Sequence record: PZ179882.1
Source: a phage
Reading direction: 5' to 3' (one strand)
DNA length: 64,000 bases
Shown here: piece by piece, positions 40,874-49,893 of the stretch
Layout of the letters: each line of letters begins with the position of its first letter
Numbering within the stretch: the stretch's first letter is position 1
Position numbers and translations under genes: made by a program
The notes under the pieces: model-generated
What the model was told of the DNA's origin: nothing
The model's input: the letters and a program-made list of their open reading frames with translations, nothing else
The model's database searches: none

Positions 40874-41155
40874 CTATTTTTCTGAAGCGCCTGAAATATA
40901 TTTTTCAAGACGTTGTTTCATTAGCGAGCCGTTCTTAGCGATTTCTTCTGGTTTATCGCACATACGCAACAAGGCTTCAAGCTTAACGATATCGCTGGTA
41001 CGTTCAAATTTGCGAGTATCTATCTTACTAGCAAGTTCAGAAATACGTGCTAATAGACTTTCAGCTTCAACCAAAGCTGCACCTAGCTTAGTTGCAAATG
41101 TGTCAGTAGCTTCGTTAAGAATAGATTCTGATAAAAATTCACTATATGTTTTCAT
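40874..41155 (-). CDS. ipII: internal protein II
   Basis: Begins [10 protein letters not shown] at the internal Met, the capsid-targeting leader shared by T4 internal proteins. Confidence 0.65.
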
Positions 41156-41640
41156 ATATACGCTTTCCAAGTTCCTGTTTTAAATGTTGAGATTACGCGT
41201 TTCGCGCGATTAGGTGTCTGACGATACCATTTAGATTGGGCTAGATTTACTGCTGCTTCATCCCAGCGTTTTTGTTGGAGCATACGTAAAGAATTAGTAA
41301 ATCCTGCCACGCCGGTTTCTCCCATTTGAAAAACCATATTAATCAATGCACAGCGGCGAACAGCATCAAGAGAATCATAAACTGGTTTTAATTTAGCATT
41401 TCTCAGAATTCCGCGAACAGCAGCATCAACATCCTGATTAAAGAGTTTTTCAGCCTCATCTTTTGTAATTACACCATTGCAATTACGCCCAATAGCTTTA
41501 TCTAATTCAGATTTGGCAACACTAAGTGATGGACTTTTAGTAAGCAAATGACCAATGCCAATAGTGTAATAACCTTCTGTGTCTTTATAGATTTTAAGTC
41601 TAAGACCTTCATCTATACGTAACATTTCAAATATATTCAT
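41152..41640 (-). CDS. e: endolysin (T4 lysozyme)
   Basis: Starts [39 protein letters not shown], near-identical to recalled T4 lysozyme; catalytic E11, D20 and T26 present. Confidence 0.97.
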
Positions 41641-41654
41641 AATACCTCCTAAGT

Positions 41655-41675
41655 ATTTATAGAAGGTATTTATAA
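41655..41675 (-). promoter_or_regulatory. late promoters (TATAAATA) upstream of e
   Basis: Two plus-strand tatttata motifs, i.e. TATAAATA on the minus strand. Confidence 0.55.
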
Positions 41676-41676
41676 A

Positions 41677-42132
41677 TTAAAAGAGGCTGTTCATTATTCG
41701 GTAAAGTGAAGGGCCCATCACATATTGCCACTGAGTACGAGGAATAAGGGCAAAAGCATCCATCTCTGGAATCATAACACCATCTTTATTTTCAAAATAA
41801 GACTCGCAATGGCAATTTCTAAACATCTCATGCTCTACTGGAATCGTATAATAAAATAACTGTAAGTCTTTATTACTAGAATATTTAAATACACCTAGGT
41901 CTTCTAGAAGGTCTGGATTATAATTGCTAAAACCAGTCTCTTCTAAACATTCTCTTCGTGCTGCATCTAGTGCGTTTAAATCAGAATTTTCTACACGGCC
42001 TTTTGGAATATCCCAGCGATGTGCCATCATTCCAGGCTTACGAGAACCAGTAACCCGTCCCATGAATAAATCTTTATCTTCTGTCATAAAGATAATACCA
42101 GCTGATAATGTTTTCATTTTAATTTCCTGCAT
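41677..42132 (-). CDS. nudE: Nudix hydrolase
   Basis: 151 aa; Nudix box GRVENSDLNALDAARRECLEETG. Confidence 0.85.
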   Translation of the reverse strand: MQEIKMKTLSAGIIFMTEDKDLFMGRVTGSRKPGMMAHRWDIPKGRVENSDLNALDAARRECLEETGFSNYNPDLLEDLGVFKYSSNKDLQLFYYTIPVEHEMFRNCHCESYFENKDGVMIPEMDAFALIPRTQWQYVMGPSLYRIMNSLF

Positions 42133-42602
42133 TCAATGATAAAGTTATTTAAATTTTGAGTATATTTCTTTTCATCAAAAATCTTTTGTTGTCTGCGTAG
42201 CCGCCATGGCATTTCGATGAACACACACCATATTCCTGATAGTATTGCTGCTGTCAAAATATTAACAAGTATGATTAAAAGAATCCAATCTCCCGTTCTG
42301 CCTACTGGACTTTCTCCAAAGAAGCAAAATACAAATGATGTCACAGGAAAACTAATAATGTACCACAGAATCATAATTTTATCTGTGAACCAATCAGCGT
42401 TCGTTAATTTAGCGCGACCATTATGAATACATACGAATTTATCATCTGTTGCAGTAGATGGCTTAACTGGTTGATATCCCATTCTAAACTCCCTAATCAG
42501 CAAATTTTTCATATCTTCGGAACAGCCATTCCAGTCAACTCTATCAACTGGAATGCCATCATCCCCATCATCTAAATCATACCAGCGAGTTTTTAAAATC
42601 AT
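42114..42602 (-). CDS. membrane protein
   Basis: 162 aa with several hydrophobic helices. Confidence 0.45.
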   Translation of the reverse strand: MILKTRWYDLDDGDDGIPVDRVDWNGCSEDMKNLLIREFRMGYQPVKPSTATDDKFVCIHNGRAKLTNADWFTDKIMILWYIISFPVTSFVFCFFGESPVGRTGDWILLIILVNILTAAILSGIWCVFIEMPWRLRRQQKIFDEKKYTQNLNNFIIECRKLK

Positions 42603-42961
42603 CTGATTTTCCTACAATCACTCACAAACTCTTTCATTGATTCATTTTCAATATAAGACATGTAGTTATTATATTCTTTTAATTGTATTTTGTAATCCTT
42701 TTTTCTTTGCCAATTTATTTTAAAATTATCATAATGAAAATATAGAATGATACAAAAGAATGAAAATAATGAAATAATTTTAGTATAGCGAAGTTCACTC
42801 CAAACTTCTATTATATTTACTGTGCCATCGATGTTTAAAATAAGACAGTCAATTAACAATCCAAAAAGACTACCCGCAAGAGCTGCAGCCAACGCCACAG
42901 CAAAAATTAAAAATGACTCAGGAAGCGAATATTTGACTTTATTTAGTTTTGGCTTTTGCAT
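42599..42961 (-). CDS. membrane protein
   Basis: 120 aa with two hydrophobic helices. Confidence 0.45.
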   Translation of the reverse strand: MQKPKLNKVKYSLPESFLIFAVALAAALAGSLFGLLIDCLILNIDGTVNIIEVWSELRYTKIISLFSFFCIILYFHYDNFKINWQRKKDYKIQLKEYNNYMSYIENESMKEFVSDCRKIR

Positions 42962-43356
42962 CGTGATTCCTTAACAAATTTCATAATTTCATCAAATTCA
43001 TACGCAGCAAGTTTAAGCTGATATTCCTTTTTAATCTTTTTACACTGTGCTTTCCAATCACGTACGCGTTTACGATAATGCCTTCCTTGATACCAGTATC
43101 CTACCCAATTTACAGGTACTAATAAAAATGGAACTATTAATGGAAGAATTAGCATTAATACAAGTATTTCGCCAGAATCAATATCAGTCATAACATCTAA
43201 AACACCTCCAATAATCAATAGAATTACAAATGATATGAGTATAACAGGACCCATTAATACATCGGTAGAAATTATCTGGCGCTTTAGTTCATACTTCAAA
43301 GGTTTACTTGGAAGGTATAGTGATGGCTTTGACATATTCTCTGCATTCCTTAACAA
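42943..43356 (-). CDS. membrane protein
   Basis: 137 aa with hydrophobic segments. Confidence 0.45.
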   Translation of the reverse strand: MLRNAENMSKPSLYLPSKPLKYELKRQIISTDVLMGPVILISFVILLIIGGVLDVMTDIDSGEILVLMLILPLIVPFLLVPVNWVGYWYQGRHYRKRVRDWKAQCKKIKKEYQLKLAAYEFDEIMKFVKESRCKSQN

Positions 43357-48641: not shown

Positions 48642-48727
48642 AGGCTCTCAAACAAGAACCCTTGATGATAGAGGGTATTAATCAGTGCGATATGAGTTAA
48701 TAATAACAAATAATTCTTAAAGCATAT

Positions 48728-49015
48728 TTACCATTTATAATAATACATATTTACGATGCATTCAAGACCCAAAGGATTCTTGAAAATATCATATTCAAGA
48801 GGACCTTTTTCTGTTTCAATAAAGAAATCAAAATTTACTGTATTAAATTTACGTTCTTCCTTCACTAATTTAACTTGAGAAGATGAACGGTCAATGTAAA
48901 CCTTTTCAACTTCAAAACATGTTAAAATGCCATAATCATCAATCAAAGCTTTAGCCGCGTCTTGATCATATTTATATCCATTTTCAATGGATGATACTTT
49001 TGCATAAAGAATCAT
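48728..49015 (-). CDS. hypothetical protein
   Basis: 95 aa ORF. Confidence 0.45.
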   Translation of the reverse strand: MILYAKVSSIENGYKYDQDAAKALIDDYGILTCFEVEKVYIDRSSSQVKLVKEERKFNTVNFDFFIETEKGPLEYDIFKNPLGLECIVNMYYYKW

Positions 49016-49017
49016 TA

Positions 49018-49416
49018 TCAGCCTTCATCAACAATAGTGTGAGTATTAGCATTTACGATTTGCCACCAATCAAAGCGATTAGAATCCATCGGTTTGTTTT
49101 CATTTTCTTTGATAATGTCACGGAGTTCATCTTCAGAGAATGCTTTAGCAATTAAATCGGTATACCCACCACGGGGATAATAATTATCACCTGCAAACAA
49201 AAGGAAATTTACCTTCCCGGAAGCAACATATGCTTCCTTAGGATACTTGTTTCCTGCGTGGTCAACCACTTCAATATAACGGTAAGGAATATCGGTTCTT
49301 TCAACCCATTGCCATGCCGCCGCAGGGGAATCGAAAGCATCTACACCTAAACGATTATCTTCATCTTTAGACGGATTATTTTCGTAATCCGCATATACAT
49401 AATATTCAACGTTCAT
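49018..49416 (-). CDS. hypothetical protein
   Basis: 132 aa ORF. Confidence 0.45.
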   Translation of the reverse strand: MNVEYYVYADYENNPSKDEDNRLGVDAFDSPAAAWQWVERTDIPYRYIEVVDHAGNKYPKEAYVASGKVNFLLFAGDNYYPRGGYTDLIAKAFSEDELRDIIKENENKPMDSNRFDWWQIVNANTHTIVDEG

Positions 49417-49601
49417 TATTCACCTTTAGAAATTTTATCCATAACAATAGCAATTAAACCAATTAAAAATGCTACTACAAGTGAAAAAACATTTTCTGCC
49501 GTAGTCAATAATCCGCATATAAATCCAACAATCATTGAAAAACTGAAAGCGGAAGCAGAAATTGCAATAGCAACATTTCGAATTAATTCACAACGTTTCA
49601 T
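49416..49601 (-). CDS. small membrane protein
   Basis: 61 aa, two hydrophobic helices; preceded by an early promoter and GAGGAG. Confidence 0.45.
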   Translation of the reverse strand: MKRCELIRNVAIAISASAFSFSMIVGFICGLLTTAENVFSLVVAFLIGLIAIVMDKISKGE

Positions 49602-49628
49602 TTTATTCTCCTCAGTAGTAGATAGGGT

Positions 49629-49659
49629 AATAGTATCACTACCCTATCTAAAAGTAAAC
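49629..49659 (-). promoter_or_regulatory. T4-type early promoter
   Basis: Minus strand GTTTAC, spacer, TACTAT. Confidence 0.5.
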
Positions 49660-49893
49660 TTATTTTTTACGAAAAATTGATTTATTTTCTGCTGCCCATT
49701 TTTCAATAACTGCAGCAGGACCAGTAACAACAATTTTATCACCGTAATCTTCTGCGGCGAGTTGACCGAAATTATCTAATGCATCACGAAGAACTCCATG
49801 AGGCATTTCACCCATTTTATCTTTCTTGCCGGTGTAAATAAACTCAACTTTTACATCAGCAGTTTCAGCAATAAATTCTTGGTAAGTTTTCAT
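49660..49893 (-). CDS. internal protein (ipI-like)
   Basis: Begins MKTYQEFIAE at the internal Met, the canonical internal-protein leader; located next to 57B where T4 carries ipI. Confidence 0.6.
   Translation of the reverse strand: MKTYQEFIAETADVKVEFIYTGKKDKMGEMPHGVLRDALDNFGQLAAEDYGDKIVVTGPAAVIEKWAAENKSIFRKK

Follow-up and report, generated by a model that had tools for sequence, protein, structure and literature searches.

Gene content of the region

The DNA analysed here is a stretch of 64,000 nucleotides from a phage (sequence record PZ179882.1; the whole stretch is called the window below), and this report concerns four small open reading frames (ORFs) in it, named ipA, ipB, ipC and ipD, which begin with a leader of the kind carried by the internal proteins of T-even phages. 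Judged by its sequence, the window comes from a T4-like phage of the genus Tequatrovirus. In a database comparison the region around the four ORFs (40300-50500, 10.2 kb) aligned from end to end with Escherichia phage DCP2 at 97.6% identity, and 107 phage records covered 80% of it or more. All genes of the region are carried by the minus strand. In the order of transcription they are gene 1, 57A, 57B, ipD, tRNA.4-.2, an HNH endonuclease gene and ten tRNAs, followed by a 116-aa ORF, rnaD/rnaC, ipC, ipB, e.8 ... nudE, e, ipA and denV.

Internal proteins are small, non-essential and synthesised with an N-terminal capsid-targeting sequence (CTS) of ten residues. In the CTS of IpIII, mutagenesis assigned residues 4 and 7 to targeting and residues 8 and 10 to processing, and residues 1-10 of IpIII suffice to load foreign proteins into T4 heads (review, PMC9026906). 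Cleavage by gp21 takes place after the Glu of L/I-x-E (PMC9026906), and the IpIII precursor is annotated as residues -10 to 183 in T4 record X04567. Injected internal proteins arrive together with the DNA and are thus the sole phage products able to act before restriction enzymes meet the genome. Each of T4 Ip1, Ip2 and Ip3 is an inhibitor of a different GmrSD type IV restriction enzyme, without cross-protection (PMC12373910, 2025). Two internal-protein loci, denV/e and 57B/tRNA.4, are described in the literature (PMC12373910; PMC3012670). Polymorphism of the internal-protein genes of T-even phages has been known since 1994, and variable cassettes that share a leader are textbook knowledge.

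A capsid-targeting-type leader heads four genes

In a six-frame translation of the whole 64 kb window, the pattern MK[TS]Y.[EQ]F[LIV].E has exactly four matches, starting at 41155, 45705, 46304 and 49893. Each of these positions is the ATG of a minus-strand ORF. The four ORFs are, in the same order, ipA (40874-41155, 93 aa), ipB (45142-45705, 187 aa), ipC (45831-46304, 157 aa) and ipD (49660-49893, 77 aa). A first-pass annotation of this DNA had listed four leader-headed ORFs at these coordinates, and the scan confirmed them; the gene at 45831-46304 was correctly placed there, and its length, given as 158 aa, is 157 aa. From the residue frequencies of the six frames, 3e-5 matches are expected by chance, and none was found in 200 shuffles. 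The similarity of the four leaders, as had been proposed, is not coincidental. A looser pattern, limited to the functionally defined positions, recovered the same four ORFs only, against 0.011 expected. An independent repeat search placed the four leaders in one family of DNA repeats (D1), 37 nt long and 70-73% identical.

Residues Y4, F7, L/I8 and E10 are present in four of the four leaders. The leader of ipB reads MKTYAEFLTE, that of ipC MKSYTQFLNE and that of ipD MKTYQEFIAE. We regard the four ORFs as bearing a genuine capsid-targeting-type leader, far beyond chance, and assign them on this basis to the T-even internal-protein class. Because the leaders keep the residues used for targeting (4 and 7) and for processing (8 and 10), packaging, cleavage by gp21 and injection of the four proteins are likely. 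In ipA a second L-x-E site ends at residue 15. The leader of ipC is likewise followed by AVLNE, so that this protein has two L-x-E sites, the second at residue 15; the second site stems from a five-residue duplication (LNEAV-LNEAS) that does not occur in the relatives of ipC. A weak tblastn match between residues 1-35 of T4 IpIII and positions 11901-12017 of the window was discarded, as the translation shows no leader-bearing ORF there.

Mature domains and protein families

The sequence likeness to the T4 internal proteins ends with the leader. BLASTP against these proteins aligned the first 10-19 residues and nothing further, and tblastn of the T4 internal proteins against the window returned leaders only. 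In an all-against-all comparison from residue 21 onward, no window protein was linked to IpI, IpII, IpIII, Ip4, Ip7 or Ip9. The mature domain of none of the four proteins (0/4) resembles T4 IpI, IpII or IpIII, let alone comes near to identity with a characterised T4 protein. Searches of Pfam, NCBIfam and PDB sequences with all four proteins gave nothing above threshold.

In T4 the gene order is denV-ipII-ipIII-e, as the T4 record confirms, and the first-pass annotation was right that ipIII is absent from this slot: tblastn found no ipIII homologue anywhere in the 64 kb window. It had further read the gene beside e as ipII, followed directly by e. That gene is the Ip5-type ipA, and ipII is absent too. 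The names "ipIII-like" for ipB and "ipI-like" for ipD have to be dropped as well, since the two genes have only the leader in common with T4 ipIII and ipI.

The 77-aa protein encoded by ipD is assigned to Ip6 (IpVI). It matches phrog_8111, "internal virion protein", at E 1e-52, and is 98.7% identical to its T6 homologue, which is unnamed in the T6 record, 94.8% identical to "ipVI" of GiZh and 78% identical to "ip6" of VR7. Its mature domain is 100% identical to that of PST IpVI, a protein whose gene also lies in the slot adjoining tRNA.4. We rejected the reading of ipD as T4 IpI (IPI*, which inhibits the GmrSD enzyme of E. coli CT596): the two gave no true alignment (E 0.1), IpI had no tblastn match in the window, and the ipD leader is of the 10-residue IpII/IpIII type, whereas IpI has a 19-residue leader ending ITE. 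No PDB relative of ipD was found by sequence.

Its matches assign ipA to the Ip5 family (RB69ORF127c type) as a diverged subtype. The protein matches phrog_3499, "internal head protein", at E 1e-46; it is 48% identical over 84 residues to Ip5 of KarlGJung and OE5505, and its mature domain is 54% identical to RB32 Ip5 and PST IpV. It falls in the same 90% cluster as RB69ORF127c, which the annotators of RB32 and RB51 tie to Ip5, and the counterpart of ipA adjoining e is annotated "ip5" in VR25. Identities within the ipA family are bimodal: about 239 records reach at least 80%, and 258 stay under 60%. Taking ipA for T4 IpII was tried and given up, because residues 1-11 alone align and the all-against-all comparison of mature domains is without a match.

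Accordingly, ipA and ipD are not new. Ip5 and Ip6 are already named families and fall within the numbering of a screen of ip4-10 against GmrSD enzymes, so the earlier suggestion of four new effectors does not hold for two of the four. Genes of these two families are annotated in the records of RB14, RB32, RB51, PST, VR7 and GiZh. Repoila et al. in 1994 reportedly dealt with Ip5 (IpV) and Ip6 (IpVI) of T2, T6, RB15, RB70 and PST, and are said to have obtained Ip8 and Ip10 by PCR at the two classical loci.

Two of the genes at the classical loci

Within the two described loci lie ipD (57B/tRNA.4) and ipA (denV/e); ipB and ipC lie outside them, between the rnaC terminator and e.8. Location is a habit of the family and not a requirement. 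Occupancy of all three loci varies among T4, RB14, RB32, RB51, PST, OE5505 and KarlGJung.

At the 57B/tRNA.4 locus, ipD (49660-49893, minus strand) lies between the 57B side and tRNA.4. One early-type promoter, with a stem-loop embedded in it, recurs in every spacer at this locus: GTTTAC-N-TGATACTAT. The intergenic cassette from 57B to Ip6 (49894-49969, minus strand) has the early-type promoter GTTTACA-N17-TACTAT with its stem-loop and includes a repeat copy at 49919-49957 (family D6). A second promoter/stem-loop repeat copy, at 49621-49659 (families D4 and D6), is found in the cassette from Ip6 to tRNA.4 (49602-49659, minus strand). The 57B-to-Ip6 spacer of the window is identical to the IpV-to-IpVI spacer of KarlGJung, and 24 nt of both are also found in the 57B-to-IpV spacer. 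In PST, KarlGJung and OE5505 a classical Ip5 comes before Ip6; the window lacks this Ip5. It looks as if the IpV module had been lost precisely from the window, or gained in KarlGJung. The identical Ip6 bodies of the window and PST carry different leaders, MKTYQEFIAET in the window (49864-49893) and MKTFKEFIAES in PST (PST 10117-10350), direct evidence of exchange also within or beside the leader, independent of the protein body.

At the e/denV locus, the stop codon of e overlaps the start codon of ipA in the sequence ATGA (41152-41155, minus strand), and ipA lacks both an intergenic region and its own promoter. Through this overlap ipA is translationally coupled to the lysozyme gene e. A pattern scan found two exact T4 late-promoter boxes TATAAATA upstream of e (41654-41674, minus strand), with starts at 41674 and 41661; these are the likely source of late transcription for e and ipA. 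Downstream, the cassette from ipA to denV (40828-40873, minus strand) has an early-type promoter, GTTTAC...TGATACTAT, and belongs to repeat family D4. The content of the locus differs between phages: T4 has ipII and ipIII, PST has IpIV and IpIII, RB14, RB32, RB51 and OE5505 have Ip4, and KarlGJung has none. The lysozyme itself (e, 41152-41640, minus strand) has 162 aa and ends in TGTWKAYI, compared with TGTWDAYKNL in T4; its C-terminus is remodelled because the e stop codon overlaps the ipA start codon at the cassette junction.

A third locus downstream of rnaC

As shown by alignment with T4, the rnaD/rnaC region of that phage matches 46348-46688 of the window at 91%, and the T4 stretch upstream of e.8 matches 44610-45133 at 92.5%, with homology resuming at 45133. 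What these flanking alignments leave over, 45134-46347 (minus strand), is about 1.2 kb of sequence inserted with respect to T4, exactly at the terminator hairpin that follows rnaC. The insertion is made up of an ipC cassette and an ipB cassette and lies between the rnaC terminator and e.8. By this architecture the rnaC-terminator site is a third internal-protein locus, apart from the two in the literature. The first-pass annotation had placed the 187-aa gene next to the tRNA island. It lies about 1.35 kb from the nearest tRNA, and ipC, the rnaC/rnaD homologues and the 116-aa ORF intervene.

The left-hand junction of the insertion is at the terminator hairpin that ends the rnaD/rnaC unit (46357-46380, minus strand). 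An exact late-promoter box TATAAATA (46343-46350, minus strand) stands 46 nt upstream of the ipC start and spans the insertion junction (GGTAT/AAATA, the slash marking the junction); the T4 equivalent is GGTATCTAAG. Between ipC and ipB lies another terminator hairpin (45800-45823, minus strand), a copy of the rnaC terminator that is 97% identical to the T4 hairpin. The hairpin AGCCCCGACCGAAAGGTTGGGGCTTTTT is thus found both upstream and downstream of ipC, and the two 40-nt copies are 93% identical (repeat family D2). The ipC orthologue in RB51 and RB32 is flanked by what their annotators recorded as a "34 bp imperfect direct repeat". Upstream of ipB, AATAAATA (45744-45751, minus strand) agrees with seven of the eight positions of the late-promoter box, again 46 nt from the start codon, and is a weak, putative promoter. 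Just downstream of ipB, a terminator-like hairpin (45115-45133, minus strand; CCCTATC-loop-GATAGGG, then CTTTTTGGTAT) forms the right-hand junction with T4-like sequence. This hairpin differs from the AGCCCCGACCGAAAGGTTGGGGCTTTTT hairpin, but the same CTTTTTGGTAT comes after both. Among the other phages, RB51 and RB32 have ipC only at this site, RB14 has ipB only, and T4 and PST have neither.

Relatives of ipB and ipC

The product of ipB is an orthologue of RB14ORF136 (97.6% identical), and that of ipC an orthologue of RB32ORF133c (96% identical), which appears as gene "RB32ORF132c" in the RB51 record. Both match phrog_2280 (function unknown), ipB at E 2e-53 and ipC at E 2e-60, and they are about 25% identical to each other. 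On these matches, ipB and ipC are distant tandem paralogues of one small family that is confined to phages. Phage records with ipB number 165, and those with the ipC family 512. When 1.8 billion representative proteins were searched with a profile, the ipB/ipC family had only 14 matches, all phage-like or chimeric, and among these 14 there was no cellular relative or functional clue. Comparison of ipB and ipC with Ip4, Ip5, Ip6, Ip7 and Ip9 from annotated records showed no mature-domain similarity; Ip8 and Ip10 were outside this comparison.

Mature ipB has a mass of 19.6 kDa, a pI of 9.5, a net charge of +9 and 26 Lys. Mature ipC is a protein of about 16 kDa with a pI of 9.5 and a net charge of +7. 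T4 IpIII* (20.4 kDa, pI 9.65, net +10) is close to ipB in size and charge. The AlphaFold2 model of ipC is all-helical and mediocre (pLDDT 70, pTM 0.40); Foldseek found nothing in the PDB with it (best E 1.1) and only its own family in BFVD. The model of ipB was unusable (pLDDT 46.6, pTM 0.23), and no fold search was made with it. The predicted models include a disordered Lys/Pro/Ala linker.

With 187 aa against 193, a similar charge and a similar leader, ipB might be taken for ipIII itself, moved to the tRNA-proximal region and diverged. At the level of the sequence this reading is refuted. BLAST aligns the first 12 residues only, and an hhalign profile comparison covered 19 leader columns at a probability of 26%. 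ipB groups with ipC in phrog_2280 and not with IpIII, and the model of its paralogue ipC retrieved its own family only in BFVD, and neither IpIII nor another internal protein. The distribution of the two genes was followed with a fused query of mature ipB and mature IpIII, which matched 427 places in 382 records. About 45 of the 165 ipB-bearing phage records also carry ipIII, where independence predicts about 36, so there is no sign that ipB substitutes for ipIII. The first-pass annotation was right about the class of these proteins (capsid-targeted and probably injected) and wrong about their identities; nothing has been relocated.

Members of the family that are less than 50% identical begin with MLKFNEFLAE, MINFSDFLNE or MLEYSEFLKE, and one shortened member (P0071) with MKFKEFLIE. 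The leader core [YF]-x-[EDQ]-F-L-x-E is thus kept in distant members despite a diverged body. The contigs of the most distant members are short (1.2-2 kb); one of these members lies near a tRNA and has a CATAAATA box upstream. That the leader core is kept while the body diverges favours selection on the leader over a recombination scar. If it were such a scar, left by a neighbouring internal-protein gene, ipB and ipC would be cytoplasmic proteins that are not packaged. Leaders are indeed prone to recombination, as the two leaders on the identical Ip6 body show, and we found no annotation or publication that calls ipB or ipC internal proteins. Still, the residues conserved at the protein level in the distant members are those for targeting and cleavage, and the DNA of the four leaders of the window is only 70-73% identical. 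The exact late promoter before ipC fits a head component. Moreover, a ten-residue CTS loads unrelated proteins in T4, and a late-expressed protein with this leader should therefore be packaged. We consider a scar improbable and prefer the reading that the leaders of ipB and ipC serve in packaging.

In OE5505 the ipB orthologue (5168-5730) is split into two ORFs, and the ipC orthologue (5856-6290) has a different N-terminus without the leader. Two chimeric ORFs (proteins P0082 and P0072) were also seen in public assemblies. In one, residues 97-122 of ipB are joined to the C-terminus of NudE; in the other, a tRNA.3-like N-terminus is joined to the C-terminus of ipC. The parts correspond to 45142-45705, 41677-42132, 45831-46304 and 49018-49416 of the window. 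Either they reflect natural multi-kb deletions with an end point inside the ip genes, or they are artefacts of assembly.

The tRNA region and the stable RNAs

The tRNA cluster at 47057-48002 has ten members, compared with eight in T4: Arg, His, Asn, Tyr, a Met/Ile2 tRNA with anticodon CAT, Thr, Ser, Pro, Gly and Leu. The array is compact except for a gap of 114 nt between tRNA-His and tRNA-Asn (47212-47325), for which neither ARAGORN nor Rfam made a call; a small RNA or the remains of a tRNA may lie there. An ORF for an HNH-type homing endonuclease (48009-48641, minus strand) lies between tRNA-Leu and tRNA.2, in the position of tRNA-Gln in T4. The GIY-YIG gene segB of T4 is absent.

The T4 stable RNAs rnaD and rnaC (species 2 and 1) have their counterpart at 46348-46688 (minus strand), with 91% identity; a tRNA-like T-arm, GGTTCGAATCC, is part of this stretch. 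Rfam returned no family for the non-coding stretch upstream of ipC, and the later alignment with T4 identified it as the rnaC/rnaD homologue; standard RNA scans leave rnaD/rnaC unannotated because Rfam has no family for them. The 116-aa ORF (46688-47038, minus strand) lies between rnaD and tRNA-Arg, which directly abut in T4. Its counterpart in the RB51 record is noted as "similar to RB69ORF150c", and it has no NCBIfam match.

Proposed function of the four proteins

The best overall explanation, to which we give a probability of about 0.8, is that the window carries four T-even internal-protein genes whose products are packaged by means of the CTS and injected, whose cassettes are exchanged between phages, and whose role is likely to be anti-defence. 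The CTS would bind the scaffolding core of the assembling prohead, and the prohead protease gp21 would cut after Glu10 at L/I-x-E, with a second possible cut after Glu15 in ipA and ipC. Probably in many copies, the mature protein would stay beside the DNA inside the head and be injected with it at the next infection, acting before any phage gene is expressed. The genes behave as exchangeable cassettes bounded by repeated regulatory DNA: at the two classical loci this is an early promoter combined with a stem-loop, and at the third it consists of copies of the terminator hairpin. The conserved leader codons are an additional repeat, and recombination between such repeats would add, remove and swap modules.

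The likeliest role of the proteins would be to inhibit host defences against incoming glucosyl-hmC DNA, above all type IV enzymes of the GmrSD family. T4 Ip1-3 offer an analogy that makes an anti-restriction role plausible, probably one against enzymes of the GmrSD type. The sequence itself shows the leader determinants, the family assignments, the layout of the loci and the distribution among phages; packaging, cleavage, injection and target are what we infer from the leaders and from this analogy. The earlier suggestion that variable injected proteins are anti-defence candidates accords with the literature on Ip1-3 and GmrSD (PMC12373910). Five further GmrSD clusters are active against T-even phages and have no known inhibitor, none of Ip1-10 having inhibited them (PMC12373910). 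Tentatively, we suggest that ipB and ipC form a new internal-protein family at the third locus and are injected effectors against defences that lack a known phage inhibitor, for example these five clusters.

The charge of ipB and ipC bears on a different role. The two proteins might be packaged by way of the leader without being anti-defence proteins, and act as basic, Lys-rich counter-ions of the DNA or as accessory core proteins, as has been proposed for T4 IpIII. Their pI of 9.5 and net charges of +9 and +7 fit this idea, as does the closeness of ipB to IpIII*. Without IpIII, heads assemble at half the rate, and at low salt internal proteins bind to DNA (PMC9026906). The all-helical models with a disordered Lys/Pro/Ala linker matched no enzyme or inhibitor fold. 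However, T4 Ip2 and Ip3 are equally basic and yet inhibit specific GmrSD enzymes, so the two roles cannot be told apart by charge. The uneven occurrence of ipB (165) and ipC (512) among about 1200 related phage records fits an accessory gene of an arms race better, and both genes are disrupted in OE5505. We therefore think it unlikely that the two proteins have no part in anti-defence; a charge-neutralising or assembly role is a live alternative that does not exclude one, and basic ipB and ipC may neutralise DNA charge in addition.

Several points weigh against the proposal that the four proteins are packaged and injected anti-defence effectors. The presence of gp21 and gp22 is deduced from taxonomy: genes 21 and 22 are outside the window, and complete Tequatrovirus genomes match the window at 97% identity. 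With a pI of 6.3-6.5, ipA and ipD are near-neutral, whereas the internal proteins of T4 are basic. No clear sigma-70 promoter was found for ipB, only the late box with seven of eight positions. Annotations of the ipB/ipC family (more than 360 database members) read "hypothetical protein" throughout, save for one spurious label, and the annotators of RB14, RB32 and RB51 named Ip4, Ip5, Ip7 and Ip9 and not these ORFs. The disruption of both genes in OE5505 indicates either dispensability, if they are real pseudogenes, or frameshift sequencing errors. In the literature, virion proteomics included, we found no experiment showing that ipB or ipC is packaged or cleaved, and a search with the RB ORF names found no publication that calls them internal proteins. 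An anti-GmrSD role is unproven for the window proteins: ip4-10, a numbering that covers Ip5 and Ip6, gave no reproducible inhibition when screened against GmrSD variants (PMC12373910).

The new element in these data is solely the unannotated leader-bearing family and its locus, a novelty that is modest but concrete. The 2025 GmrSD study leaves several active variants without a known inhibitor, and the leader assigns two widespread "hypothetical" genes to the internal-protein class and points to a third locus. ipB and ipC are therefore two concrete and cheap candidates for anti-defence screening. The assignment is also useful for annotation and for the engineering of therapeutic T4-like phages.

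Comparison with known systems

The four window proteins and T4 IpI-IpIII have the N-terminal leader in common, and that of ipD (MKTYQEFIAE) is the same as the IpII/IpIII leader. They also share the L/I-x-E cleavage site and small size, and the loci of ipA and ipD match those of T4 (e-denV and 57B-tRNA.4). They differ in that the window proteins have no mature-domain similarity to the T4 proteins and in that ipB and ipC are at another locus. Compared with classical Ip5, ipA is homologous along its whole length, yet only 48-54% identical, and its place is not the 57B locus but the e-denV locus, where it is fused with the end of e. ipB and ipC are members of phrog_2280, together with RB14ORF136, RB32ORF133c and RB69ORF148c-149c, and the RB14 record notes similarity to the RB69 tandem pair. 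No source names members of this family as internal proteins or notes the leader; the CTS reading comes from the present analysis and from the first-pass annotation.

Promoter-early stem-loop (PeSL) elements are reportedly due to Arbiol 2010 and Comeau 2014. They are cassettes that drive modular shuffling in T4-like phages and have the consensus TTTACW-N17-TAYWAT (PMC4122927). The spacers flanking ipA and ipD fit this PST/T4-type consensus with its embedded stem-loop, and they are located exactly at the boundaries of insertions and deletions. The cassettes of ipB and ipC differ from this arrangement, being bounded by copies of a rho-independent terminator hairpin that are followed by a late, not an early, promoter.

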